Origin: an uncultured Clostridia bacterium
GTDB taxonomy: Bacteria; Bacillota; Clostridia; Christensenellales; UBA1242
Assembly (NCBI GenBank): GCA_944383335.1
Contig: CALWPD010000003.1
Span: 3,498-67,497, forward strand
DNA length: 64,000 bases
Direction: 5' to 3'
The notes below the pieces were generated by a model. It had not been told where the DNA came from. It saw only the letters and a program-made list of their open reading frames with translations, and did no database searches. Within the stretch, counting starts at the first letter, position 1. The number at the start of each line of letters is the position of its first letter. Positions 1,100 to 58,753 of the stretch are shown one piece after another. Made by a program: the position numbers and the translations under genes.

Positions 1100-1227
1100 A
1101 ATCTAGCGTGTCTGCCCATCGTCAAAACCTGCGCCAACGGCCTAAAATTGCCAAGGCAATTTGTGAGGCTTTTTGCTTGGTTTTGCCTCTCCCCAAAAAG
1201 TTTCCATAGGTACTTTATTGGGGGCCC
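1100..1227 (-). repeat. About 130-nt structured repeat element, copy 1 (inverted relative to copy at 50302-50431)
   Basis: The reverse complement aligns by eye with 50302-50431: about 38/42 identical over the first block, looser after. Both carry hairpins CCAA(T)AAAGT...ACTTTTTGG and AAATTGCC/GGCAATTT. It lies just 3' of tRNA-Leu on the same strand. Confidence 0.6.
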
Positions 1228-1258
1228 CGTGAAACGGCAGCCACATTATTCTTATTAT

Positions 1259-1343
1259 TGGTGCTGATGAGGAGATTTGAACTCCTACGCCTTTTGGGCA
1301 CTAGAACCTGAATCTAGCGTGTCTGCCGTTTCACCACATCAGC
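1259..1343 (-). tRNA. tRNA-Leu (anticodon CAG), encoded CCA
   Basis: Reverse complement is GCTGATGTGGTGAAACGGCAGACACGCTAGATTCAGGTTCTAGTGCCCAAAAGGCGTAGGAGTTCAAATCTCCTCATCAGCACCA. It has a 7-bp acceptor stem, anticodon stem CTAGA/TCTAG with loop TTCAGGT, a long variable arm and a GTTCAAATC T-loop. Confidence 0.92.
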
Positions 1344-1352
1344 ATACATTTT

Positions 1353-1381
1353 AGTATACATCAAGGTAGTAATATTTTCAA
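1353..1381 (-). promoter_or_regulatory. Sigma-A-type promoter for tRNA-Leu(CAG)
   Basis: On the minus strand, TTGAAA-17 nt-TATACT ends about 10 nt before the mature tRNA 5' end. Confidence 0.55.
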
Positions 1382-3598: not shown

Positions 3599-4385
3599 TT
3601 TTTTGACTAAACTAAATGATGATGATATTGTGAAATACTTAGAAACCAATCAAAACCTATTAGATTTAATTTGTTGTCCTGTATTCACAACAGAATTGAA
3701 AAATCCATTAAAATTCATAAAAAATGCGAAAAAAACAATAAAAAATTATAATTTTTGCAAAATTTCTATTGAAGATATCGGTTTTTTAAAACAAAAAAAT
3801 TTTTTTGAGATACTTAAAATCAAGCCTATTTACATTAGTTTAACTTGGAACTACAAAAATAAATTTGCTGGTGGGGCTTATAGTGATGGAAGATTGACCG
3901 AATATGGTAAAGTTATGATCAGAAAGTGTGAAGAAAATAATATTTTGATTGATTGTGCGCATTTAAACTATCGTTCTTTTTCTGATATTTTGGATATTTC
4001 AAAACGGCCAGTAATATGTTCACACACGGGTTTTTGTGATATTGTTTGGGATAAACGAAATTTAACAAGACATCAAATAAAGGATTTAATTGATAACAAA
4101 GGTATAATTGGTTTGTATTTTGTTGGAAAGTATATATCAAAAGAAAGGATAAATGCTTATGATATAATAAAAAATATTGATTATTTTGTGCAAAATTTTG
4201 GAGTTGATAATTTATGCTTTGGCACCGATTTTTTTGGAACAGATGATTTACCTAAAAAAATCACTCAGTATAAAGATATGGAATTAATCAAAAGATTATT
4301 GGTTAAATGTGGATATACACACTTGGATATCAATAAAATATTTAAAACTAACGCTGAAAGGTTTTTTCAAAAATATTCATATTGA
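3579..4385 (+). CDS. M19 membrane-dipeptidase family protein
   Basis: IDLHNDFL at the N-terminus, then CAHLNYRSF, ICSHTG and FGTDFFG. The start overlaps the upstream peptidase gene by 20 nt, with GAGGGA as RBS. Confidence 0.72.
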   Translation: MIDLHNDFLTKLNDDDIVKYLETNQNLLDLICCPVFTTELKNPLKFIKNAKKTIKNYNFCKISIEDIGFLKQKNFFEILKIKPIYISLTWNYKNKFAGGAYSDGRLTEYGKVMIRKCEENNILIDCAHLNYRSFSDILDISKRPVICSHTGFCDIVWDKRNLTRHQIKDLIDNKGIIGLYFVGKYISKERINAYDIIKNIDYFVQNFGVDNLCFGTDFFGTDDLPKKITQYKDMELIKRLLVKCGYTHLDINKIFKTNAERFFQKYSY

Positions 4386-5750: not shown

Positions 5751-7175
5751 ATGAAAAACAAAGCGATAACATCACGAGATTTAGATTTTGCCAAATGGTA
5801 TACAGATATTGTTAGATGCGCAAAACTCGCTGAATATTCAAACACAAAAGGGTGTGTAATTTTGGAGCCAAATGGCTATGCACTTTGGGAAAAGATGCAA
5901 AGCGTACTTGATAAAATTTTTAAACAAACAGGGCATCAGAATGTTTCAATGCCATTATTAATTCCTGAAGGACTATTGAGAAAAGAGGGTGAACTTGTAA
6001 AAGGTTTTGCGCCAGAGTGTGCTTGGGTAACAGTTGGCGGTCAAAATACCCTTGATGAAAGACTTGCAATTCGCCCAACCAGCGAAACACTATTTTCAGA
6101 TTATTATAGTTTAAAGATAAAGTCTTATCGAGATTTGCCAAAACTTTACAATCAGTGGTGCAATGTTATGCGTTGGGAAAAGGAAACTAGACCTTTTCTT
6201 CGAACTCGTGAGTTTTTGTGGCAAGAAGGACACACTGTGCACGCAACCAAAGAAGAAGCAGAAGAAGAAACATTAAAAATGTTGAATGTCTATAAAGATT
6301 TTTTTGAAAAATATCTTGCAATCCCTGTTATTTGTGGCAAAAAAACTGAAAAAGAAAAATTTGCTGGTGCAGAATATACGTTTACAGTTGAAGCGCTTAT
6401 GTACAACGGTGTTAGCCTCCAAAGTGCAACATCTCACTATTTTGGGCAAAAATTTGCAAAAGCGTATGACATTAAATTTTTAAACAAAAACAACGAATGG
6501 GAATATGCATATCAAACTTCATGGGGATGTTCAACTCGTATGATTGGCGGGCTTATTATGGTCCATAGTGATGATAACGGGCTTGTACTTCCACCTAGGA
6601 TAGCACCAAGACAAGTTGTGATAGTCCCAATAGGTGATAGCGAAGAAGTAAACAAGCTTGCAGATAAATATTTAAAACTACTTACAGATGCTGGAATATC
6701 AGTATTTTGCGACAATTCCGATCGTTCGCCAGGTTTTAAATTTGCAGAACATGAAGTAAATGGAATACCTGTTAGGATAGAGATTGGTGCTAGAGACCTT
6801 GCTAATGGTGAAATTACTCTTTCTAGGCGTGATACACGAGAAAAAATAAATAAAAAAATAGATTGTGATATTGTTTTTGAAGTTAAAAAACTTATGGATG
6901 ACATTCAAAGTAATTTATATGCGCGTGCACTAAAGCGTAGAAACTTACTCACCTATAGGACTGATGATATAAAAGAAGTGGAAAATATAATCAAAACCAA
7001 ACCAGGATTCATTTATGCACATTGGTGTGGAGATGAGGCTTGTGAACTCAAGATGAAAGAACTTGGCGGAATAAAATCTAGGTGTATAACAGATGAACCT
7101 GTTGGTGATGGTGATAGATGTTTAGTATGCCAAAAACAGGCTAAATATATGGTGGTTTGGGGAACTCAGTATTGA
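5751..7175 (+). CDS. proS: Prolyl-tRNA synthetase (short, archaeal/eukaryote-like class II type)
   Basis: 474 aa. N-terminal FAKWYTDIV...AEYS..KGC.ILEPNGYALWE and class II core motifs. Lacks the large bacterial insertion domain. Confidence 0.9.
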   Translation: MKNKAITSRDLDFAKWYTDIVRCAKLAEYSNTKGCVILEPNGYALWEKMQSVLDKIFKQTGHQNVSMPLLIPEGLLRKEGELVKGFAPECAWVTVGGQNTLDERLAIRPTSETLFSDYYSLKIKSYRDLPKLYNQWCNVMRWEKETRPFLRTREFLWQEGHTVHATKEEAEEETLKMLNVYKDFFEKYLAIPVICGKKTEKEKFAGAEYTFTVEALMYNGVSLQSATSHYFGQKFAKAYDIKFLNKNNEWEYAYQTSWGCSTRMIGGLIMVHSDDNGLVLPPRIAPRQVVIVPIGDSEEVNKLADKYLKLLTDAGISVFCDNSDRSPGFKFAEHEVNGIPVRIEIGARDLANGEITLSRRDTREKINKKIDCDIVFEVKKLMDDIQSNLYARALKRRNLLTYRTDDIKEVENIIKTKPGFIYAHWCGDEACELKMKELGGIKSRCITDEPVGDGDRCLVCQKQAKYMVVWGTQY

Positions 7176-48468: not shown

Positions 48469-48504
48469 AACTCACTTTGAAGCACTTATCAAAGTGAGTT
48501 TTTA
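48469..48504 (+). terminator. Rho-independent terminator after clpX
   Basis: 12-bp stem AACTCACTTTGA/TCAAAGTGAGTT, an 8-nt loop, and a short T-run. Confidence 0.8.
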
Positions 48505-48506
48505 TG

Positions 48507-48598
48507 TCAGGCGGACTCACTCCAAGGTGCTGTGCAAGTTCTACTTGCCCAACACCTTTTTCTTGTCTAAGAAGTTTTAAATTGTTTTTAAACTTATT
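48507..48598 (-). pseudogene. Remnant of an XRE-family HTH gene
   Basis: The minus strand reads NKFKNNLKLLRQEKGVGQVELAQHLGVSPPD, a typical Cro/C1 HTH N-terminus. There is an in-frame stop just upstream, no ATG, and the frame runs into the clpX terminator. Confidence 0.5.
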
Positions 48599-49147: not shown

Positions 49148-49311
49148 GACATTCTTTATGTCATCCCAAGCCATGCCTTAATGCGTCGGCTTTTTATGTC
49201 ATTCTGAGACGGCCGTCAACACATCGACCTTTTTCGTCATTCTGAGCGAAGCGAAGAATCTCAACTTTATACTGTCATTCCGAGTAGTGCGGCATGTCAG
49301 AGCAACCGGTT
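49148..49311 (+). repeat. Phased array of four 38-nt units, each opening with GTCAT(T/C)C(T/C)(G/A)AG
   Basis: Unit starts at 49160, 49198, 49236 and 49274, exactly 38 nt apart, with a partial GACATTC at 49148. Unit 3 is the canonical hairpin GTCATTCTGAGCGAAGCGAAGAATCTC. Units 1 and 2 end in T5. Confidence 0.8.
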
Positions 49312-49323
49312 GGGTGGTGGGCA

Positions 49324-49917
49324 TTAACTTATTGTTTCATCAAGAAATGTTGCCATATTATCAGCAATATGAGTCAAAAACGCATTTGGATATTTGTAAT
49401 AAATATCATTCAAACTAATTCCGCCTTTAACTCGCATGTCATACTCTCCCATATGCCAGTTGATACACATCGCTTCTTCTCTGGTTAGTCGAATAAAACC
49501 ATTTAAGATATACACAGATTTTTCACCATGACCATAGGGTAATTTGTCCTGTGTTGTATAATATGGTACTTGCACCCAAACCCCATTTTGTTTAACATTT
49601 TTGGTGTCCACAACATATGTATCAACTTTACAAATATCATGAAACAATGCCACAATAGTTGCACTTTCAAGCGAAAAATATTGTTGCCATTGTTCGCCAT
49701 ATTGCATTTTTAAAAGTTTAACAAGTCTTTCAAAAACATTAAGGGAATGTTTACAAAGCCCACCAGCGCAATTTGAGTGATATCTTGTTGATGCTGGTGC
49801 TACAAAAAAGTCAGTTTTTTGTAAATATTCAATAAGTGTATTAATACCTTCACGTTTTATGTTGTCTTTAACCAAACTTAAAAAAATATTTTTGTTGTCT
49901 TCAATAACATTATCCAT
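49324..49917 (-). CDS. HD-domain hydrolase (YhaM-like HD domain, no OB fold)
   Basis: STRYHSNCAGGLCKHSLNV and ALFHDICK (H...HD). Start taken at MDNVIEDNK (49917) with RBS GGAGAA. The upstream extension in the track is repeat-rich and probably non-coding. Confidence 0.72.
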   Translation of the reverse strand: MDNVIEDNKNIFLSLVKDNIKREGINTLIEYLQKTDFFVAPASTRYHSNCAGGLCKHSLNVFERLVKLLKMQYGEQWQQYFSLESATIVALFHDICKVDTYVVDTKNVKQNGVWVQVPYYTTQDKLPYGHGEKSVYILNGFIRLTREEAMCINWHMGEYDMRVKGGISLNDIYYKYPNAFLTHIADNMATFLDETIS

Positions 49918-49934
49918 TAATTTTCTCCGAACAC

Positions 49935-49963
49935 ATTTTAGCATAAAAACAATCAATAAACAA
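49935..49963 (-). promoter_or_regulatory. Candidate promoter of the HD-hydrolase gene
   Basis: Minus strand TTGTTT-17 nt-TAAAAT with a TG extension, about 17 nt before the ATG. Confidence 0.45.
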
Positions 49964-50143
49964 CATTTTGGCATATAAATAATACATATGGAAAATAATA
50001 ATGTGGAAAATATAATATCGCTTGCAACAATTTTTTCCACATCACTTTCGAAAAACAGTACAAAAGAACAACTGTTAGAATATAAAATATTTTTTCAAAC
50101 TGTAACAAATAATTTAAATTCAATACTCTCAAGCAAAAAGTAA

Positions 50144-50300
50144 GAGATTTTTCACTGACGCCACTTTTCGTCTTCTTGAGCGTTTCAGTCTGTCATTTTG
50201 AGTTTGAATTTCGTCATTTTGAGTGTGTATTCCGTCATTCTGGGCGTTTTAGCCTGTCATTCTGAGCCCGCTCCAACGCGTCGACCCACGAAGAATCTCA
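50144..50300 (+). repeat. Tandem 21-22-nt array of the GTCATTYTGAG family (five units) plus one inverted partial copy
   Basis: Unit starts at 50170, 50192, 50213, 50234 and 50256 (spacing 22, 21, 21, 22). An inverted partial copy GAGATTTTTCACTGAC lies at 50144-50159. The last unit is a long form, GTCATTCTGAG-22 nt-CGAAGAATCTC. Confidence 0.8.
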
Positions 50301-50301
50301 T

Positions 50302-50431
50302 GGGCACCAAAAAGTACCTACGGAAACTTTTTGGCGAGAGGAGAAACGGAGCGTAAAGTAAAAATTTGCGAATAGCAAATTGAAGCCCTAAGCGACAGTT
50401 TTGACGAGAGACGGAGCCGCAGAGCTCACGA
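50302..50431 (+). repeat. About 130-nt structured repeat element, copy 2
   Basis: Aligns with the reverse complement of 1100-1227. Hairpins CCAAAAAGT/ACTTTTTGG and AATTTGC/GCAAATT. Followed by another CGAAGAATCT half-site (50429-50438). Confidence 0.6.
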
Positions 50432-50437
50432 AGAATC

Positions 50438-51355
50438 TTATTTTTTTAATCGCAAATCGCTATTCTCAACATTGATAACAAGTGAAGATGCTTGGCTTAA
50501 AAGTCTTGAAAACACTCTGTCGCCATAAAAGTCTTGAATTTGCTGTAAGGATAGGTTAGTAGATATGACCGTTTTTTTATTGTTTCTCATTCTCTCAGAA
50601 AGCACATTATATATCCCTTCAATCGTAACATTTTTTAATATAGGTTCTGTTCCAAGGTCATCAATAAAAAGGTAATCGGGTTCCATTAACATATGCAAAT
50701 ATTGACCCTTAGTTTCATCAAAAGTTGTGTGATATTTTAATAAATTTTGATTAAGCTCAAAAGCGGAAGTAAAGTATACAAGTACTTCTTTATTAATAAG
50801 GTCATTTGCCATACATTCCATTACATATGTTTTGCCAGCGCCGGTTTTACCAATCAAAAGCACATTATTATAGGGGTTTTTCTTATCACACCAGTTTTTT
50901 AAGATTTCATATAATTTTTGTGTTTTTTTGGGGTCATCAAAGATTTTAAAATCGCAATTTTCGAAACTTTTTTTGTCCTTGCTAAGTCCGCTTTTTTCAA
51001 ATAAAATTAAATTAATTTCGCGTTTTAGACAAGAACATATCTCACCATTAACATAGCCTGTATCATTACATTTTGCACAAGTGTAGTGTGGTGAAATGGC
51101 TTTTTTGTCAATTTCTAATTTTTTCAAAATGTCATCTTGAATTTTAAGAAGATTTGTTAGGTCATATTTTGGCTTTTCCCCATAAACTTCAGATTTAGCA
51201 TTTTGAATTTCTGCTTGTTTAATTTCTTTAAAATTCTTTTTAAATTCTTCATTTGCCATCGCTTTTTCAAAAAAACTGTATGCCAGTGCTTCAGCATTTA
51301 CACGCCTTGCTTTGATTTTGTTTAGCGCTGATTCAATTATTTGTTTGTTTAACAT
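50438..51355 (-). CDS. dnaI: Helicase loader DnaI/DnaC-like AAA+ protein
   Basis: N-terminal Cys cluster CAKCNDTGYVNGEICSC, Walker A GKTGAGKTY and Walker B LFIDDLGTE. Confidence 0.8.
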   Translation of the reverse strand: MLNKQIIESALNKIKARRVNAEALAYSFFEKAMANEEFKKNFKEIKQAEIQNAKSEVYGEKPKYDLTNLLKIQDDILKKLEIDKKAISPHYTCAKCNDTGYVNGEICSCLKREINLILFEKSGLSKDKKSFENCDFKIFDDPKKTQKLYEILKNWCDKKNPYNNVLLIGKTGAGKTYVMECMANDLINKEVLVYFTSAFELNQNLLKYHTTFDETKGQYLHMLMEPDYLFIDDLGTEPILKNVTIEGIYNVLSERMRNNKKTVISTNLSLQQIQDFYGDRVFSRLLSQASSLVINVENSDLRLKK

Positions 51356-51357
51356 AG

Positions 51358-52800
51358 TTATATCTCCACTTCATCAAGATTTGTAAACAGCGAATTTATT
51401 TCTGCTGGTGTGTATTCATGGTTGTCATAGTTTCTTTTAGGTGAAACATCTTTTACTTGTTTTGGAGAATTGTTTTTTGCTTGTTCTATGGTTTTTATAC
51501 CATTCTGATTCCATGAAAGTATAAGTTTGTTTGCAAATGCCATTGCTTTTGGTTTGTTTTTTGCAATTTCACAGGCATAATCAATAAGATCCTGACCAAT
51601 GTTTAGTTTTGTCCAATTAGAATAAATTTCACGATCTATATTGTTCACATTTCTATCATTTCCAAGTTTTTGCAAAATTTGTTTAATTTTTTCTTCGGTG
51701 TCTAAAATCTCTTTAAAGTATTCGTCCAAAGAACTTGTGGTAACAATTCCAAGTTTAAAAAATTTTAAAATTTGCTTGTCCATATATTCAAGCGTACGAA
51801 CTGAGTTTTTAAAACAGTAGTTACTTATGGTTAGTAAAGTGTCATCGTCAAAACCCATATTCTCCCAAACGCTTACATAATTTTCAACAACAGGTTCAAC
51901 ATTTTCGTAATACACGCCTAGATTTTTACATATATTTTTTGCAAGTTCATAAAGCCTTGTTTTTGTGTTTTCATACTGTTCAATATCCAAAATATCAAAA
52001 AGACGCATTGAAAAATATTTTTCAAAAATAGCATCCAAATATCTAAAATTAACTGAATTTTTTGATTTTTTCTGTAATTTTGCCACATAATTTATAACAT
52101 TTGGTAAAAATCCCATATCTAGCCACTTTTTGTAAAGGTCTTTTTCAAAAGTGTCAAGTGCGCGTTTAATTCCCATACTTTTTGCAACGATGGCAATACT
52201 TTCACTATCTTTTTGATAACCAAGCAGTTTTTCTTCCATTGCCTTGGCTGTGGTTATGCCTTCTTGTGCCCAATTTTTTGCAACTGTAATTATGTAAGCA
52301 TATCCCACGTTATCACCTTTAAGGTCAACGCAATATTTGATTATCATAATTAGCGCACTTGGTTCAATTTTTAAACTTTCCATAAGAGCATAATATTCAT
52401 AGTATTCATTAGGAGTTATCATTCTGCCCGTTATAATCTCTTGTGCTTGCAAATTGAATGAGTTATATTTTCCGTCTTTAATTTTTGGATGTTTAATGTT
52501 TACATTTTTAACAGGCAAAAACCTTACTTCATAAGGAATTGTATCCAAGATTTGCACGAGACCTTTGTCCTGCCAATACACGAATGCACTTTCTATGTCT
52601 TCATGCGACATATTTAAGGTTTTTGAAAATTCTTCAATGGAGTTATGTATTGGACTTGCCACACTACAAGCAAAAAGTCCATACAAATAGACCTTTACAC
52701 ATTCCGCTGGGGCAGATGGCATAAATGAAGTGATGAACAAATTGTCCACCGTCGTCTGATTATCAACAATTAATTGTGATGAAAAACTACAGAAACTCAT
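51358..52800 (-). CDS. Replication initiation/membrane attachment protein (Bacillus DnaB-like, DnaD-domain)
   Basis: About 480 aa with repeated DnaD-like segments (YWQDKGLV..., AKNWAQEGITT, ILSWNQNGIKTIEQA). The stop is 2 nt from the dnaI ATG. Start at 52800 with RBS GAGG. Confidence 0.7.
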   Translation of the reverse strand: MSFCSFSSQLIVDNQTTVDNLFITSFMPSAPAECVKVYLYGLFACSVASPIHNSIEEFSKTLNMSHEDIESAFVYWQDKGLVQILDTIPYEVRFLPVKNVNIKHPKIKDGKYNSFNLQAQEIITGRMITPNEYYEYYALMESLKIEPSALIMIIKYCVDLKGDNVGYAYIITVAKNWAQEGITTAKAMEEKLLGYQKDSESIAIVAKSMGIKRALDTFEKDLYKKWLDMGFLPNVINYVAKLQKKSKNSVNFRYLDAIFEKYFSMRLFDILDIEQYENTKTRLYELAKNICKNLGVYYENVEPVVENYVSVWENMGFDDDTLLTISNYCFKNSVRTLEYMDKQILKFFKLGIVTTSSLDEYFKEILDTEEKIKQILQKLGNDRNVNNIDREIYSNWTKLNIGQDLIDYACEIAKNKPKAMAFANKLILSWNQNGIKTIEQAKNNSPKQVKDVSPKRNYDNHEYTPAEINSLFTNLDEVEI

Positions 52801-52933
52801 ATTAACCTCGTGGCTAACTATAACACAAAATTTTGATTTTATCAACAATAGGTTAATCATTTTATTATGAATCTTAAATGTGTCTATTCATAGTTTTGTT
52901 CTTGCGACATAGATATATTTTAGTGAGGGAAAT

Positions 52934-54403
52934 ATGAAGAAGATTGCATTTTTACTTATTTTTGTACTTTGTTGTTTCACGTTTTCGGGCTGTGGTAGTT
53001 TATATAATTATACAAAAGACTTAACATCCTATGATATGGACATACTTTACGACGAAACAAAGCATGCGCTTACAATTCAGCAGACAACAGATTATGTAAA
53101 TACTTCAAACAACATACTTTCGTACATCAAATTTCATTTATATCCAAATGCTTTTCGTGAAGGGGCAAAGGCAAAAGTTGTCAGCGTACAAAATAGCGAC
53201 CTGGCGTATCCAAATGGCGAAAGTTATGGGGATATTAAAATTCAAAGCGTTGAAACCTCTGGAGAAAGTGCAGATTTTGAAGTTGGAGGCGAAGATGAGA
53301 ACATTTTAACTGTCAACCTTAAAAATGAACTCTATCCAAATGATAGGGCAATAATTTATATTGAATACGAAGTAACTCTTGCTAACATAAATCATAGGTT
53401 GGGTTATGGTGAAAACGCCGTAAACTTATGCAATTTTTATCCAGTTGTATGTATGTACGAAAGTGATGATTTTGTATGCGACCTATATAATTCTAATGGT
53501 GATCCATTTTATAGTGCGGTTTCTGACTATGATGTAACAATTACTTATCCAAATTCTTACATTTTGGCAAGCACAGGCAATCAAAAAACTCAAAATTTTG
53601 AACTTGTCAAAAAAACAAATATTCTAGCACAATGCGTGCGTGATTTTGGAATGGTACTTTCAAAAGAATTTCAGCAAAAGTCCGGAGTAATAGATGATGA
53701 TTTGACGGTAAATTATTATTATTACAATGACGAAAATTGCGACCAAACTCTTGAATTTGTTAAGAAAGTTATGACTTTTTTTGAAGAAAAAATTGGCAAA
53801 TATCCATATTCGCAAATAAGTGTTGTCAAAACCAACTTTGTGCATGGAGGAATGGAATATCCAAATATGGTACTTATATCTGACAATATTATAGACGATG
53901 AAACATATGAACTTGTTATTGTCCACGAACTTTTGCACCAATGGTGGTATTGTGTAGTTGGAAACAATCAGTTTGATTATGGTTGGATAGATGAAGGACT
54001 GACTGAGTTTTGTACAGTATATTTTTATGAAAAACATCCGGACTATAACAGAACAATGTCCGAGATGATTTCAAGTGCCACAAAAAGTTACAAAACTTTT
54101 GCAAAAGTCTATGAGTCTGTGCAAGGAAGCGTTGATACCAGCATGAATCGTCCGCTTGATGAATTCGCAACTGAGCCCGAGTATGTTTATAACACATATG
54201 TTAAGGGCACACTTATGTTTTCTACCATTTATGATTTAGTTGGAGAAAAAAGATTTGTTAATGCTTTGAAATATTATTATGAGAATAATTTATATAAAAT
54301 AGCAACACCAAGCACAGTTATTCAATGTTTTTCACGTGGCACCGGAAAAAATCTTGAAGATATTTTCACAAGTTTTCTTGACGGAAAAGTTGTAATAAAA
54401 TAG
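52934..54403 (+). CDS. M1-family zinc metallopeptidase, lipoprotein
   Basis: Signal peptide with lipobox FSGC, and the HELLHQWW...18 residues...EGLTEF motif (HExxH-x18-E). Confidence 0.82.
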   Translation: MKKIAFLLIFVLCCFTFSGCGSLYNYTKDLTSYDMDILYDETKHALTIQQTTDYVNTSNNILSYIKFHLYPNAFREGAKAKVVSVQNSDLAYPNGESYGDIKIQSVETSGESADFEVGGEDENILTVNLKNELYPNDRAIIYIEYEVTLANINHRLGYGENAVNLCNFYPVVCMYESDDFVCDLYNSNGDPFYSAVSDYDVTITYPNSYILASTGNQKTQNFELVKKTNILAQCVRDFGMVLSKEFQQKSGVIDDDLTVNYYYYNDENCDQTLEFVKKVMTFFEEKIGKYPYSQISVVKTNFVHGGMEYPNMVLISDNIIDDETYELVIVHELLHQWWYCVVGNNQFDYGWIDEGLTEFCTVYFYEKHPDYNRTMSEMISSATKSYKTFAKVYESVQGSVDTSMNRPLDEFATEPEYVYNTYVKGTLMFSTIYDLVGEKRFVNALKYYYENNLYKIATPSTVIQCFSRGTGKNLEDIFTSFLDGKVVIK

Positions 54404-54437
54404 AACCTATATTTATAGTTTTTTGTTATTAAAAAAT

Positions 54438-54468
54438 GGACATCAAAGGTCCACTCACGAAAAATCTC
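54438..54468 (+). repeat. Degenerate copy of the hairpin repeat family (long-form right arm CCACTCACGAAAAATCTC)
   Basis: The right half resembles CCCACGAAGAATCTC at 50286-50300. The left half is diverged (GGACATCAAAGG). Confidence 0.35.
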
Positions 54469-54509
54469 AACATTTAGTGCCATTTAAGGTCGTTCGACCG
54501 TGAAAATTT

Positions 54510-54968
54510 TTAATACACAGCGTCAGGAGTTGAATATTCTTCAACCAAAAAAGTGCCAGGTCCATCGGCAGTCATTTCAATTTCCATATGTGTGCGAAAT
54601 ACGCCAGTTTTGGTTGTAACATATTTATTAAGTTCTTCTACTAAAGCATTATAAATTTTTTCAGCAAGTTCGGGTTTTGCCGAGTGCGTAAAGTCAGGGC
54701 GATTTGCACCTTTTGTTCTACCATAAAGAGTGAAATTACTTACAAGCATAATTTCTCCACCAACTTTTTGAATATCTAAATTCATTTTATCATTTTCATC
54801 ACGAAAGACACGCAGTTTAAGTAGCCTTTTGGCAAAGTGTGGGACCATTTCTAAGTTGTCGGTCTCATGCACTCCAAAAAGTATCAAGAAACCGCCGTCT
54901 ATATGGCTATAAAGTTTATTTTCACTGTACAATGTGCAATTTTTAACTTTTTCAACAATGGCTCTCAT
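54510..54968 (-). CDS. dtd: D-aminoacyl-tRNA deacylase
   Basis: MRAIVEKV N-terminus, VSNFTLYG and DGPGTFLVE. Confidence 0.88.
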   Translation of the reverse strand: MRAIVEKVKNCTLYSENKLYSHIDGGFLILFGVHETDNLEMVPHFAKRLLKLRVFRDENDKMNLDIQKVGGEIMLVSNFTLYGRTKGANRPDFTHSAKPELAEKIYNALVEELNKYVTTKTGVFRTHMEIEMTADGPGTFLVEEYSTPDAVY

Positions 54969-55357
54969 CTCATATCTCCTGCATCAAAATTATTTGGCAG
55001 GAGATTTTTTAACGAGTACACCTTAAAACTTTTTTCATCTTTTGCCAAAACAATTTCCATATCTTTAAACTCACTTAAAACTTGCCTACAAATACCGCAA
55101 GGTGGTGTAAAGTCGCCACTACTTGAAACAATGGCGATTGCCATAAACTCAGTTTCACCTTGCGACACCGCACAGGCGATGGCACTGCGTTCTGCGCAAA
55201 TGGATGCACCATAACTTGCATTTTCAATGTTTGTACCAACATAGTAGTTGCCACTTTTTGTTAAAATGCAAGCTCCGACTTTGAAGTGAGAATATGGCGA
55301 ATAAGAATGTTGCATACACGCCAAGGCTAAATTTATCATTTTTTTATAATCAATCAT
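54965..55357 (-). CDS. cdd: Cytidine deaminase
   Basis: CAERSAI and PCGICRQ zinc motifs. Start chosen at MIDYKK by alignment to the typical 130-aa length. The track start at 55408 is a TTG inside the tyrS promoter region. Confidence 0.85.
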   Translation of the reverse strand: MIDYKKMINLALACMQHSYSPYSHFKVGACILTKSGNYYVGTNIENASYGASICAERSAIACAVSQGETEFMAIAIVSSSGDFTPPCGICRQVLSEFKDMEIVLAKDEKSFKVYSLKNLLPNNFDAGDMR

Positions 55358-55454
55358 GCCATAATTGTACACCATCTGGTACTTTTTAACAACTGTTTTG
55401 CTTGACAAACTTTTTTTAGTATAATACTATGTCTTTACATTTAGGAGCATAGTT

Positions 55455-56705
55455 ATGGTAGATAAAACATTATTTCAAACATTAAAAAAACGGGGTCTTT
55501 TATATCAGTGTACAGACGAAGAATCACTTAAAAATCTTCTTGAAAGTGGCAAGCCTGTAACGCTCTATGAAGGCACTGATCCAACGGCAGATAGTTTGCA
55601 TATAGGCCATTGTGTACCATACTGCATATTAAGGCGTTTTCAAAAAGCAGGGCACAAAGTTATACTTTTAATGGGTGGAGCAACTGCACAAATTGGCGAT
55701 CCGAGCGGAAAGAGTGAACTTAGAAAAGTTATGGACGGTGATACAATTAACAATAATATTGAAAAAATAAAAAATTCACTTAAGATATTTTTGGACTTTG
55801 ATGGTGAAAACCCAGCAATAATTGTCAATAATTTCGATTGGTTTAAAGGGCTAAGTTATATAGATTTTATGCGAGAGGTAGGCATACATTTTAATGTCAA
55901 CAAGATGCTTTCAAGTGAAATTTATGACAATAGATTAAATGAAGGTGGTCTAACATTCTTTGAAATGGGGTATATGCCAATGCAGGCGTATGACTTTATT
56001 GAATTAAATAGAAAATATGGTTGCACACTTCAATATGGTGGTGCAGATCAGTGGGGGAATATTGTTGCAGGCGTTGAGCTTCAAAGAAAACTTAATTTCC
56101 AAAATGGTACAGATGTAAATCTAATTGGAGCAACAAACCCACTATTATTAACGCCAGACGGCAAAAAGATGGGCAAGACGGAAAGAGGTGCGATTTGGAT
56201 AGACCGAGATAAAATTTCTGCCTATGATTTCTATCAAGGTGTTTATCAAACTCCGGATGAGTGCACACGCATGATGTTTGCACTTTTCACTGATGTAGAT
56301 ATGGATGAAGTGGACAAACTCATAAAAGAAGATATTGTAAATGCGAAAAAAGTTATGGCATACGAGATAACAAAATTTGTTCGTGGAGAACAAGACGCAG
56401 TTGAAGCACAAAATGCTACAAAGGCTTTATTTGAAAATAAAGGCAGTTTAGACAATGTTCCTACTTTTAAAATAGAAAGGTCCACACTTGATAATGGTTT
56501 GGATGTTGCCACATTGTTTACGCTTTGCGGCTTATGTTCATCAAAAGGTGAAGCAAGAAGGTTGTGCATTCAGGGTGGAATTATGGTCGGTGAAAAAAAG
56601 ATTATGGATGCCAGCGCCATAGTTACAACTCAAGATTTGTCCAAGGATGGATATTTGCTCCTTAAAAAAGGGAAGAAAACATTTATAAAGTTAGAAATAA
56701 AATGA
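55455..56705 (+). CDS. tyrS: Tyrosyl-tRNA synthetase
   Basis: DPTADSLHIGH (HIGH), KMGKT (KMSKS) and a C-terminal S4-like domain. Confidence 0.95.
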   Translation: MVDKTLFQTLKKRGLLYQCTDEESLKNLLESGKPVTLYEGTDPTADSLHIGHCVPYCILRRFQKAGHKVILLMGGATAQIGDPSGKSELRKVMDGDTINNNIEKIKNSLKIFLDFDGENPAIIVNNFDWFKGLSYIDFMREVGIHFNVNKMLSSEIYDNRLNEGGLTFFEMGYMPMQAYDFIELNRKYGCTLQYGGADQWGNIVAGVELQRKLNFQNGTDVNLIGATNPLLLTPDGKKMGKTERGAIWIDRDKISAYDFYQGVYQTPDECTRMMFALFTDVDMDEVDKLIKEDIVNAKKVMAYEITKFVRGEQDAVEAQNATKALFENKGSLDNVPTFKIERSTLDNGLDVATLFTLCGLCSSKGEARRLCIQGGIMVGEKKIMDASAIVTTQDLSKDGYLLLKKGKKTFIKLEIK

Positions 56706-57049
56706 ACGTTTTAGAGATACAAAAATCAAAGTTTATTGGCTTTGCCTATAGTGTAAGTGATGTAAAGAGTGTTGAAAATATTTTAACTAAACTGAAACGG
56801 GAATACAAAAAAGCGACACATGTTTGTTTTGCTTACAAAATAAATTGTGGTGTGGAAATTGTTAAATTTTCAGATGACGGCGAACCACAAGGTACAGCGG
56901 GTAGGCCAATTTATTCAGTTATTGAAAAGAAAAAAATAGAAAATGTTTTGGTAGTTGTTATAAGATTTTTTGGTGGAATAAAACTTGGCGCAGGCGGTCT
57001 TGTCAGAGCATACACCAAAACGGCAAGTTTGGCACTAGGAGAGTTATGA
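56702..57049 (+). CDS. IMPACT/YigZ-family N-terminal domain protein
   Basis: ATHVCFAY...DDGEPQGTAGRPI...VIRFFGGIKLGAGGLVRAY. Confidence 0.8.
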   Translation: MNVLEIQKSKFIGFAYSVSDVKSVENILTKLKREYKKATHVCFAYKINCGVEIVKFSDDGEPQGTAGRPIYSVIEKKKIENVLVVVIRFFGGIKLGAGGLVRAYTKTASLALGEL

Positions 57050-57660
57050 GAATAACAAAAATAGAACAAAAAGGCAAAAGTGAAGTTTATAGAATATTTG
57101 TTGACGAAACTTTTTATTGTCTTTTGATGGCGGAAACTATTGTAAAAAATAAATTAAAAATAAATCAGGAACTGGAAGAAGAAGAATTAATAGTTTTAAA
57201 AAAACAAAGCGATAAACTTTTGGCACGGGAAATGGCGTTAAAATACGTTGAAAAAGGACTAAAAACTCAAAAGCAAGTTTATGAAAATTTAAAGAAAAAA
57301 AATATTGATGATGAAGCCATTTTTGACGCAGTCAAGTTCTTGAAAAGTTATGGGTATATCAATGATTTAACCTATGCAAAAGAGTACATTTCTTCCAAAA
57401 AGTCAAATGGAAAAAATTACTTAAAGCAAGCACTATTTGCAAAAGGCATTGATAAACAAATTATTGATGAAGTTTTGAAAGAATATCAAATTGATGAAGA
57501 TACATTAAATTTGCTAGTAAAAAAATTTATAAAAAATAAACCACAAGACGAGAAATTAAGACAAAAGGCATATAGATATATCTTGTCAAAAGGTTACACA
57601 TTTAATGAAGCAAAATTAGCAGTTGAGAAAGTTCTTGGAGAAAATAATGATTGGAATTGA
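57046..57660 (+). CDS. recX: Recombination regulator RecX
   Basis: Three-repeat helical pattern with ALKYVEKGLKTQKQVYENLKKK, SYGYINDLTYAKEY and LFAKGID. Confidence 0.78.
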   Translation: MRITKIEQKGKSEVYRIFVDETFYCLLMAETIVKNKLKINQELEEEELIVLKKQSDKLLAREMALKYVEKGLKTQKQVYENLKKKNIDDEAIFDAVKFLKSYGYINDLTYAKEYISSKKSNGKNYLKQALFAKGIDKQIIDEVLKEYQIDEDTLNLLVKKFIKNKPQDEKLRQKAYRYILSKGYTFNEAKLAVEKVLGENNDWN

Positions 57661-57982
57661 TATTTTAGAAATTGAAAGAATAAAAATTCTTGCAGATGAT
57701 GAAAATAAATTAAAAAAAATATTTACTGAAAATGAGATAAATTATTTTAATAATTTTAAAAACAAATATGAACATATTTGTGGTTTTTTTTGTGCAAAGG
57801 AAGCGGTAAAAAAAGCGCTTGATTGCCCCAACAATTTGTCTTTTTTGGATATTGAAATCTTGCACTCAAATAGTAAGAAGCCATATGTAAAAATAAATAA
57901 AAAATATGAAATAAAAAAACAAATAAAAATTTCTATCTCACATTCAAAAACATTTGCTACGGCAGTTTGCTTAATTATTTAA
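57647..57982 (+). CDS. acpS: Holo-ACP synthase
   Basis: MIGIDILEIERI N-terminus, FCAKEAVKKAL and ISISHSKTFATA. Confidence 0.88.
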   Translation: MIGIDILEIERIKILADDENKLKKIFTENEINYFNNFKNKYEHICGFFCAKEAVKKALDCPNNLSFLDIEILHSNSKKPYVKINKKYEIKKQIKISISHSKTFATAVCLII

Positions 57983-58042
57983 AGAACTATTTTTCACCTT
58001 AAGCCATCATACTTGTTATTTTGTTTTATTCAACTCCCACTT

Positions 58043-58076
58043 GTCATTTCGAGCGTCAGCGAGAAATCTCTTTTTT
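58043..58076 (+). repeat. Hairpin repeat copy (GTCATTTCGAGCGTCAGCGAGAAATCTC) followed by T6; probably doubles as the acpS terminator
   Basis: Stem ATTTC/GAAAT with inner CG-TCAG-CG, and a T-run at 58071-58076. Confidence 0.75.
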
Positions 58077-58125
58077 AAGAATATATTTTTTTGTTTTTCG
58101 CAACATATGTTTAGAAGTTTAAAAT

Positions 58126-58380
58126 ATGGAGATAAATTATATGGAAATAAATTACGATAAAATCAAAGAAGTTTTACAGAAAAATGTCGATGATTTTGAA
58201 AAGAAAAACGGCAAGGACTATTCATTTTATCTAAGTCAAAATGATGAACTTGTGCATAGTATGAAAGTGAAGGGAATGTTGTTTTCAAAACTTGATCTTG
58301 ATAGAGAATTTGAAAATGCTGACCTTTTAGACTATTTAGGGTATGAAAGGATTATATCGTGCAAGAAAGACCACAAATAA
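58126..58380 (+). CDS. Putative antitoxin of the MazF module, not RHH/MazE-like in sequence
   Basis: Overlaps the mazF start by 22 nt. Acidic/aromatic C-terminus ([18 protein letters not shown]). Begins with a 15-nt tandem duplication ([10 protein letters not shown]). The second ATG (58141) has GGAG 9 nt upstream and may be the real start. Confidence 0.55.
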
Positions 58381-58718
58381 CAAGAGGTGATATATATTAC
58401 GCAGACCTAAGTCCTGTTGTTGGAAGCGAGCAGGGTGGACAAAGGCCTGTTTTGGTAATACAAAATAATGTAGGAAATAAATATTCACCAACTATAATTG
58501 TTGCAGCGATAACAAGTCAGCTTACAAAAGCAAAAATTCCAACACACATTGAACTTTCTTCTTCTAAATATAATTTGCCAAAGGATAGTGTTATTTTACT
58601 TGAACAAATTCGTACCATAGACAAACGTAGACTAGGCGATAAAGTATGCAAAATAGATATGGTAAAAATGAAAGAAGTCGACAAAGCAATCTTAATCAGT
58701 TTAGGTTTTTATGAATAA
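58359..58718 (+). CDS. mazF: MazF/EndoA (PemK-family) mRNA interferase toxin
   Basis: [32 protein letters not shown]...[10 protein letters not shown]...PTHIEL...[16 protein letters not shown] is near-colinear with Bacillus EndoA. GTG start with RBS GAAAGGA. Confidence 0.92.
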
Positions 58719-58753
58719 TGAATTTTAACACTAATTTTCAATTTTGCTTCACT

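Follow-up and report, generated by a model that had tools for sequence, protein, structure and literature searches.

Pneumococcal BOX, RUP and SPRITE repeats and the Correia elements, known from Firmicutes and Neisseria, are modular, structured intergenic repeats of about 100-150 nt, which fold when they are transcribed and can affect neighbouring genes. IS200/IS605 elements and their miniature derivatives (PATEs) move by single-strand 'peel and paste' transposition. REP/BIME mosaics and REPINs are mobilised by RAYT transposases of the Y1 HUH type (PMC2817692, PMC3333891, PMC3116915), and REP and IS200/IS605 systems have been compared with each other (PMC3333891). Besides, some insertion sequences home into palindromic repeats, such as IS1397 and ISKpn1 in BIME loops, or the IS110-family members ISPpu9 and ISPpu10 in REPs, with a separately movable RNA module, Ssr9 (PMC1525189, PMC12288879). 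The BOX, RUP, SPRITE and Correia repeats have been reviewed (PMC3184786).

The window considered here is a stretch of 64,000 nt from an uncultured Clostridia bacterium (GC content 32.5%), in which spo0A and clpX are present, as suits an AT-rich, spore-forming Firmicute. A first-pass annotation of this DNA had described an element occurring twice in opposite orientation, with the reverse complement of 1100-1227 aligning with 50302-50431. The match was confirmed by blastn of the window against itself, which gave 74% identity over 104 nt (E=6e-11), a value far beyond chance; between blastn and the alignment of family copies, the identity of the two copies ranges from 67 to 74%. Concerning the extents, they had to be corrected to the cores 1119-1229 on the minus strand and 50302-50407 on the plus strand, the surplus bases being flank, and 50408-50431 is local sequence outside the element. 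The covariance model R1, described below, finds just two copies of this element, termed A, inside the window, and blastn found no third copy within it. The two copies and their surroundings are as follows.

1119-1229, minus strand: element A copy 1, 111 nt, core CGGGGCCCCC...GGTTTTGACGA, R1 106.5 bits (E~1e-26), ends taken from the multi-copy alignment
1230-1245, minus strand: stretch on the 5' side of copy 1, repeating the tRNA-Leu D-arm in inverted form (TGTGGCTGCCGTTTCA), blastn 15/16 to 1319-1334
1100-1116, minus strand: stretch on the 3' side of copy 1, repeating 17 nt of tRNA-Leu (1311-1327, D-loop to anticodon stem) in direct orientation, 100% identical
1259-1343, minus strand: tRNA-Leu(CAG), found by ARAGORN and Rfam, the upstream neighbour of copy 1
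1353-1381, minus strand: promoter-like site of tRNA-Leu, TTGAAA-17-TATACT, 10/12 in a consensus scan, predicted by sequence alone
50302-50407, plus strand: element A copy 2, GGGCACC...AGTTTTGACGA, R1 110.9 bits
50287-50301, plus strand: left direct-repeat member beside copy 2, 15 nt, imperfect, CCACGAAGAATCTCA, the 3' half of a GTCATTCTGAG...GAAGAATCTC unit
50427-50441, plus strand: right direct-repeat member beside copy 2, TCACGAAGAATCTTA, blastn 14/15 to 50287-50301

Copy 2 lies, as had been described, behind a tandem array (period of 21 nt, 50192-50239) near dnaI, a DnaI/IstB-type gene; it stands on the strand opposite to dnaI, 30 nt past its stop codon.

Element A is a previously undescribed family of non-coding, hairpin-forming repeat modules. 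Its kind, that of small structured intergenic mosaic repeats, is familiar, while the family itself is undescribed. In the best reading, A behaves as a tiny parasitic DNA module rather than as a dedicated RNA gene. We propose, with a probability of roughly 60%, that it is a new family of non-autonomous selfish mosaic repeat DNA without terminal inverted repeats (TIRs) or target-site duplications (TSDs), which is moved or recombined in trans. Between the two identities suggested in the first-pass annotation, the non-autonomous mobile element is retained on account of copies that are multiple, nested, present or absent by site and nearly identical across species, while nothing speaks for the unclassified structured RNA as a dedicated gene.

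In the alignment of copies, element A is about 111-116 nt long and reads (C)GGGG-N-CCCCAAAAAGT...ACTTTTTGGGGAGAGG...long hairpin...GACGA, behind a T-rich leader with the consensus TTTTTC in the 5' flank. The CCCC of GGGG-N-CCCC starts an 11-bp hairpin (CCCCAAAAAGT/ACTTTTTGGGG) with the conserved loop ACCTAYGGAA, which an AGAGGA linker joins to hairpin 2. This second hairpin is irregular and spans ~65 nt, with a base stem RAAMC/GKTTY and a tip AAWTTGC/GCAAWTT. GACGA is the invariant 3' end of all copies; hairpin 1 begins ~6 nt inside the 5' end and hairpin 2 stops 6 nt short of the 3' end. The two hairpins named in the earlier description were both found, the first as CCAAAAAGT/ACTTTTTGG and the second as AATTTGC/GCAAATT in one copy versus AAATTGCC/GGCAATTT in the other, and the same two-hairpin fold was predicted for each copy; the two were also aligned by MAFFT.

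The covariance model R1 was built from 15 copies of A and retrieves 19 strong copies (95-147 bits) from the window and the collected related loci. Canonical pairing is observed in 99.4% of the pair cells of these 19 copies, and five base pairs show double-sided changes (21 cells); at the tip of hairpin 1, the copy of locus L027 provides a further change, from CC/GG to TC/GA. The covariation score was reached by none of 500 column shuffles of the alignment, and in controls where the pairing partner was slid, pairing fell to 29-58%. Compensatory changes maintain both hairpins. Folding energy barely beats that of shuffles in the two window copies (z = -0.7 and -1.7), so the structural support comes from covariation, not from stability. 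On the GGGG...GACGA strand, five G-U wobbles were counted versus three mismatches, and this strand is mildly favoured as the putative folded one. Coding is excluded because the indels of the alignment are not multiples of 3.

The compensatory changes and the count of five G-U versus three mismatches would also fit an RNA function. The corresponding alternative is that each copy of A encodes a small structured RNA that acts in trans (sRNA or RNP component), the gene having been duplicated around the genome. Its support here consists of the hairpins conserved with compensatory changes, the strong conservation of the hairpin-1 loop and of the GGGGAGAGG junction, and the slightly higher number of G-U pairs than of mismatches on one of the strands, but folding energies so close to those of shuffles and copies of the same genome that are just 67% identical speak against it. 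Considering also the genomic evidence given below, we regard such RNA genes as quite unlikely.

The ends of A resemble those of IS200/IS605 elements in several respects. TIRs are absent, since the ends (C)GGGG... and ...GACGA are not complementary in the aligned copies, and no regular TSD was found in the flanks, where direct repeats vary in length (15, 17, 34, 61 and 73 nt) and reflect local module or tRNA duplications. Furthermore, as in IS200/IS605, a hairpin lies a few bases inside each end, the left junction may have a short sequence preference, here T-rich (TTTTTC), and the right end carries an invariant pentanucleotide (GACGA). The left-flank motif is nevertheless loose: T is present in 13/19 copies at -6 to -3 and in 11/19 at -2, followed by C at -1, none of it invariant and with many copies co-ancestral. 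Other differences are the two hairpins, which are unlike each other, the lack of a known tnpA/tnpB partner and the position of the window copies on opposite replication strands. These lie within a region of uniform positive GC skew, an arrangement that, for just two copies (n=2), seems at odds with the strict strand bias known from IS200/IS605. Regarding the flanks, the 3' flank pairs with the 5' flank from +1 or +2 in 9/14 copies, which places the junctions at the boundaries of host stems; the flank hairpin is missing in the other 5/14.

With respect to known families, Rfam 15 at gathering thresholds recognised only five tRNAs in the window, and at E<=10 the 400-nt pieces around both copies gave just noise from miRNA, snoRNA and lncRNA models. 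Viral contigs scanned with two patterns and blastn against phage and plasmid collections gave zero matches to A, and a full-text search of one collection of papers with sequence words of the A core and of its companion repeat m4 returned primer coincidences alone.

Several more specific identities were considered and discarded. A hammerhead-like CUGANGA could be read at the 3' end of A, but this sequence is not constant (CTGACGA, TCGACGA and TTGACGA occur) and ribozyme models give no match. A promoter based on the TTGACG of the 3' end lacks a -10 box at the proper spacing, and A is not an intrinsic terminator, with no U-tract behind its own hairpins. The reading as retron ncRNA (msr/msd) was left aside as well, with inverted flanks in just 9/14 copies, where they are part of a host hairpin, and no adjacent reverse transcriptase. 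For the integron attC and inverton readings, the defining partners or end motifs are missing. A is short, non-coding, multi-copy and polymorphic for presence and absence, all of which is MITE-like, but a classical MITE would have the TIRs and the fixed-length TSD that A lacks.

The distribution of the family was explored with a degenerate pattern derived from the best-conserved part of A, GTACCTAYGGAAAC-N4-7-GGNGAGAGG, run on GTDB species genomes. It gave 16 matches, all of which fall within four MAG species classed as uncultured Clostridia or "Christensenella"; two of the four hold six or seven matches per MAG. Beyond the two copies first annotated, the pattern scan and the covariance model together yielded at least 19 more, distributed over four or five related MAG species. 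The scan of JGI/ENA metagenomes provided one additional match only, which, in such a large collection, indicates that A is confined to a narrow clade. With six or seven exact-pattern copies per MAG, the copy number of A looks low against that of BOX, RUP or Correia repeats, to which A bears no sequence similarity; it is alike in size, intergenic position, structure and construction from modules, while RUP and Correia elements have TIRs and TSDs.

Seven of the 16 pattern matches lie at most about 660 nt from a contig end, which is what repeats that interrupt assemblies would produce. The other assemblies of the window strain are 100% identical, with no polymorphism, and simply end in repeats. 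Two of them (L018 and L019 in the L001-L029 numbering of the loci and assemblies compared with the window), assembled independently from the same strain, end at window positions 50275 and 50372, inside an m4 array and inside A copy 2, respectively, which shows how these repeats break short-read assemblies. A third one of the identical strain (L020, 1-4561) extends the window upstream with spoIIGA, sigE and sigG-type sporulation genes and two holin genes before spo0A; no further copy of A was found in these 4561 nt.

All copies of A are intergenic, their orientation to the neighbouring genes varies, and several sit just 3' of genes. No recurrent protein was found beside them, the only clusters being spurious ORFs that cross the repeats. 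The tblastn searches with IS200 TnpA and RAYT queries (approximate sequences) gave nothing in ~300 kb, and no copy among the R1 matches has an ORF separating hairpin 1 from hairpin 2. The flanks of the copies are mutually unrelated, so there is no conserved promoter or terminator, and no terminator-like site stands behind either window copy on its own strand. For a trans-acting RNA, this lack of conserved signals and the occurrence in either orientation are adverse features. The more specific proposal of an independent sRNA gene is not supported, as the copies have no conserved promoter or intrinsic terminator of their own.

Element A also has relatives and companions. Weak full-length matches of R1 (19-31 bits), which often overlap strong ones on the opposite strand, define a sister family, B. 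It has an A-like architecture with a homologous second hairpin and a different hairpin-1 sequence; its first hairpin reads GTCACGGC-AAAACCGC...GCGGTTTT-...-GCCGTGAG and the repeat spans ~140 nt. A small hairpin (AAGAAATCC...GGATTTCTT) precedes B, and its end is adjoined by the m4 unit, of the form GTCATT(C/T)TGAG...variable...CGAAGAATCTC. In the related MAGs, m4 adjoins nearly every copy of A or B (L001-L016). The modules A, B, m4, M5, M7 and M8 combine in variable order and orientation; within the window, m4 units alone accompany A, with B, M5, M7 and M8 absent. The positions of these repeats are given next.

L002 843-984, minus strand: family B copy
L016 6827-6967, plus strand: family B copy
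L007 2103-2242, minus strand: family B copy
L024 ~2600-2810: family B copy
Window 50192-50300, plus strand: m4 array, four GTCATT(C/T)TG(A/G)G units, directly upstream of copy 2
Window 49198-49290, plus strand: second m4 array, three units, on the far side of the 49324-50040 ORF
Window 58043-58073, plus strand: m4 occurrence
L021 ~2700-2810: module M8
L009 113-262 and 520-655: module M8
L007 2270-2520: module M8
L006 1770-1880 and 7640-7740: GGGCAAC...CGAGCCT repeat

Some of these sequences deserve a separate comment. M8 (...CAGTCATTTAGGAAACTAAACTCCTGC...GAGCCTTGTCTTTCTTG...TTTTGACGA...) is another structured repeat, whose 3' part shares TTTTGACGA with the end of A. The repeat GGGCAAC...CACACAGTCACGTAC(A/G)GAGTACGCTCGTGCGTG...CGAGCCT is a further one, found downstream of both A copies in MAG E21__bin298. 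The m4 units yield spurious small ORFs (peptides such as ...FFASLRMT...). The minus-strand ORF 49324-50040, of ~195 aa from an internal ATG, lies between two m4 arrays, with copy 2 following shortly after; a Pfam search (E<=0.001) gave no match, and the ORF may be a small cassette-like insertion between a DUF1858 gene and dnaI. At 48497-48590 on the minus strand, between clpX and the DUF1858 gene, an XRE-type helix-turn-helix frame fragment (...NLKLLRQEKGVGQVELAQHLGVSPPDIKT) with stop codons upstream is probably a pseudogene remnant.

A recurrent arrangement is the nesting of one family in the other. In six loci (L001, L003, L012, L016, L009 and L017), A lies inverted inside hairpin 1 of B, between GGCA and AAAA, and B without A is found in L002, in L007 and at a second site of L016 (L016b). 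This nesting explains the pairing of the flanks of those A copies, CACGGC/GCCGTG, with a compensated variant TGTGGC/GCCACA in L012. It recalls the insertion sequences that target REPs, since A is likewise a repeat inside the hairpin of another repeat, with junctions at stem/loop boundaries and modular composites as a result; those insertion sequences, however, are protein-coding and 1-2 kb long, whereas A is non-coding, 113 nt long and accompanied by a partial replacement of the target stems. Frequent nesting inside another repeat is a further point against a trans-acting RNA.

The likeness to REP/BIME mosaics and REPINs is broader. A is a short, non-coding, hairpin-forming intergenic repeat with many copies per genome, it clusters with other motifs in variable mosaics and in both orientations, and relatives differ in having it at all, although it persists within the lineage; TIRs and TSDs are lacking. 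On the other hand, A is ~113 nt long with two unlike hairpins, while REP is a palindrome of 20-40 nt with a GTAG-type head; the A/B pairs are nested, and A is not arranged in symmetric inverted doublets; and no RAYT was found for A in the ~300 kb searched with the approximate query. REP/RAYT systems are best known in Proteobacteria, and the hosts of A are AT-rich Clostridia.

Turnover of these modules was observed at orthologous sites. The contig L016 (MAG E30__bin7) is collinear with window 51600-58728 at ~80% identity and carries a 470-nt m4-m4-B(A)-m4 block (3771-4241) where window 55403-55441 has ~40 nt of unrelated sequence, as well as a B mosaic of 180 nt (6780-6958) where window 57982-58035 has ~54 nt of unrelated sequence. 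The stretch 55403-55441 includes a promoter-like TTGACA-17-TATAAT. L007 and L009 are orthologous, with flanks 95-99% identical; A sits in M8 in L007 versus B in L009, and the A subtypes differ.

The identity among copies does not follow that of the genes around them. Between L005 and L012, identity reaches 98% for A against ~76% for the adjacent genes, and in general copies 96-99% identical occur between species with genes ~76% identical. The subfamily A1 shows 92-99% identity across three MAG species, and the window copies are 67% identical to each other. This is what is seen in repeat families that combine a subfamily of recent spread with old, decaying copies, and not in a uniformly constrained RNA gene. 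The near-identity between MAGs could be due in part to binning or assembly artefacts at repeats. No clean pair of filled and empty sites with identical flanks was found among the compared loci. Moreover, at B and M8 the host stem is not just interrupted, part of its 3' strand having been replaced, so the mosaics could have arisen by recombination or by template switching from one module to another, with no need for true transposition.

The tRNA-Leu locus bears on the readings of A as an RNA. Copy 1 is directly downstream of a tRNA-Leu(CAG) on the same strand (1259-1343), with a promoter-like site at 1381-1353, just as had been described, and there is no terminator between the two in the window; copy 1 is likely transcribed behind tRNA-Leu. 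On its other side, a bidirectional terminator after spo0A (709-746) is followed by a very AT-rich, ORF-free stretch of ~350 nt (750-1100), in which no feature was found.

When the orthologues of the gene neighbouring copy 1 (spo0A/tRNA-Leu locus) were traced in ten related assemblies, tRNA-Leu(CAG) was kept beside that gene in all but one. A is downstream of tRNA-Leu in four of the loci: the window, L004, L027 and L022, where it is 3'-truncated and fused to M8. At L021, an M8 module lies inside the terminator hairpin and there is no A; L023 and L024 have an inverted B and no A; L025, L028 and L029 have no module. The neighbouring proteins are only 46-59% identical among the species that retain A by tRNA-Leu, a persistence that favours the trans-acting RNA, but the occurrence is patchy, and the replacement of A by other modules at this one conserved locus counts against it.

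A terminator hairpin stands between the tRNA and A in L004, L006, L022 and L027. Co-transcription with tRNA-Leu, suggested from the start, is therefore possible in the window and not a family-wide property, being at most a local accident of this locus. The same evidence is relevant for a cis-acting RNA, by which A would serve as a tRNA 3' trailer, a stabiliser of mRNA 3' ends or an insulator selected in place, as REP, BOX and ERIC sometimes are. Copy 1 behind tRNA-Leu with no intervening terminator, copy 2 at 30 nt past the dnaI stop on the opposite strand and the several copies immediately 3' of genes agree with this role; in addition, GATTGATTTTTG follows the flank palindrome, so an A-containing hairpin could end the tRNA transcript. 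Nevertheless, terminators separate tRNA and A in the four loci just named, the orientation to the upstream gene is inconstant, the hairpins of the element itself have no following U-tract and A is missing at the same sites in closely related species, all of which makes a cis-acting function unlikely. The stricter version, a tRNA-linked trailer, is not supported in view of the intervening terminators and of the six relatives in which A is missing at the locus.

The sequences around A at this locus have a particular layout. An inverted fragment of the tRNA D-arm, shared by L022, L004 and L027, precedes A at every A-bearing tRNA-Leu locus, and a direct copy of the tRNA from the D-loop onwards follows it. 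In the window this direct copy has a length of 17 nt; in L027 it extends over 73 nt, as far as the CCA end, and has a different acceptor strand. An unrelated tRNA-Leu(AAG) locus, L006, is organised in this way too, its direct copy reaching the CCA end with 61 nt, all identical. Two tRNA fragments in head-to-head arrangement consequently form a palindrome whose loop holds A, and in the window the 5' flank 1230-1245 is able to pair with the 3' flank of copy 1. The flanks of the A copies away from tRNAs show no tRNA-Leu similarity, so the tRNA pieces are a property of the site rather than a part of the element; for the same reason, the tRNA D-arm was discarded as a component of A itself.

Direct duplicates of this sort, from D-arm to CCA, could also be left by an integrative element targeting tRNA-Leu, of which A would be a leftover arm (the att site of a phage or island). 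The 61 identical nt of L006 and the 73 nt of L027 with their different acceptor strand have the classic look of attL/attR. However, most copies of A lie away from tRNAs with flanks devoid of tRNA similarity, there is no integrase in the examined loci, only about 170-190 nt separate the tRNA repeats and compensatory changes in hairpins are unexpected for protein arm sites, and an att remnant is consequently very improbable.

Returning to selfish mosaic repeat DNA as the preferred reading, A would depend on factors acting in trans for its movement or recombination, passing through a folded single-stranded state. An enzyme of the HUH/Y1 type could recognise the folded single-stranded A, as occurs in IS200/IS605 and in REP/BIME-RAYT systems; the covarying hairpins near both ends, the junctions at host stem boundaries and the lack of TIRs and TSDs fit such recognition. 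The tRNA-Leu-derived flanks of copy 1 are most readily explained as a tRNA-fragment palindrome that lies at a hot spot behind tRNA-Leu and holds A in its loop. Where A is transcribed, it would fold as RNA, and this may be a side effect and not the reason for its existence. A bolder version, which we consider doubtful, holds that A and B are new miniature elements, in need of neither TIRs nor TSDs, homing into the loop/stem junctions of DNA hairpins by means of a single-strand-specific enzyme, with one subfamily spreading between co-resident species. The targets would include the hairpin of the sister element and the palindromes of tRNA-Leu fragments.

These results add a repeat family, a sister family and companion modules to what is known of the poorly studied AT-rich Clostridia (Christensenella-like MAGs), where mosaics of the REP/BIME type have hardly been described so far. 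In practical terms, these modules break assemblies, create spurious small ORFs and might be misannotated as sRNA genes or as RNAs linked to a tRNA. The nesting of A in B, the palindrome of tRNA fragments and the near-identical subfamily constitute a tractable case for the target choice of an element without TIRs and, if an associated enzyme is found, it might be a hairpin-directed DNA-insertion system.
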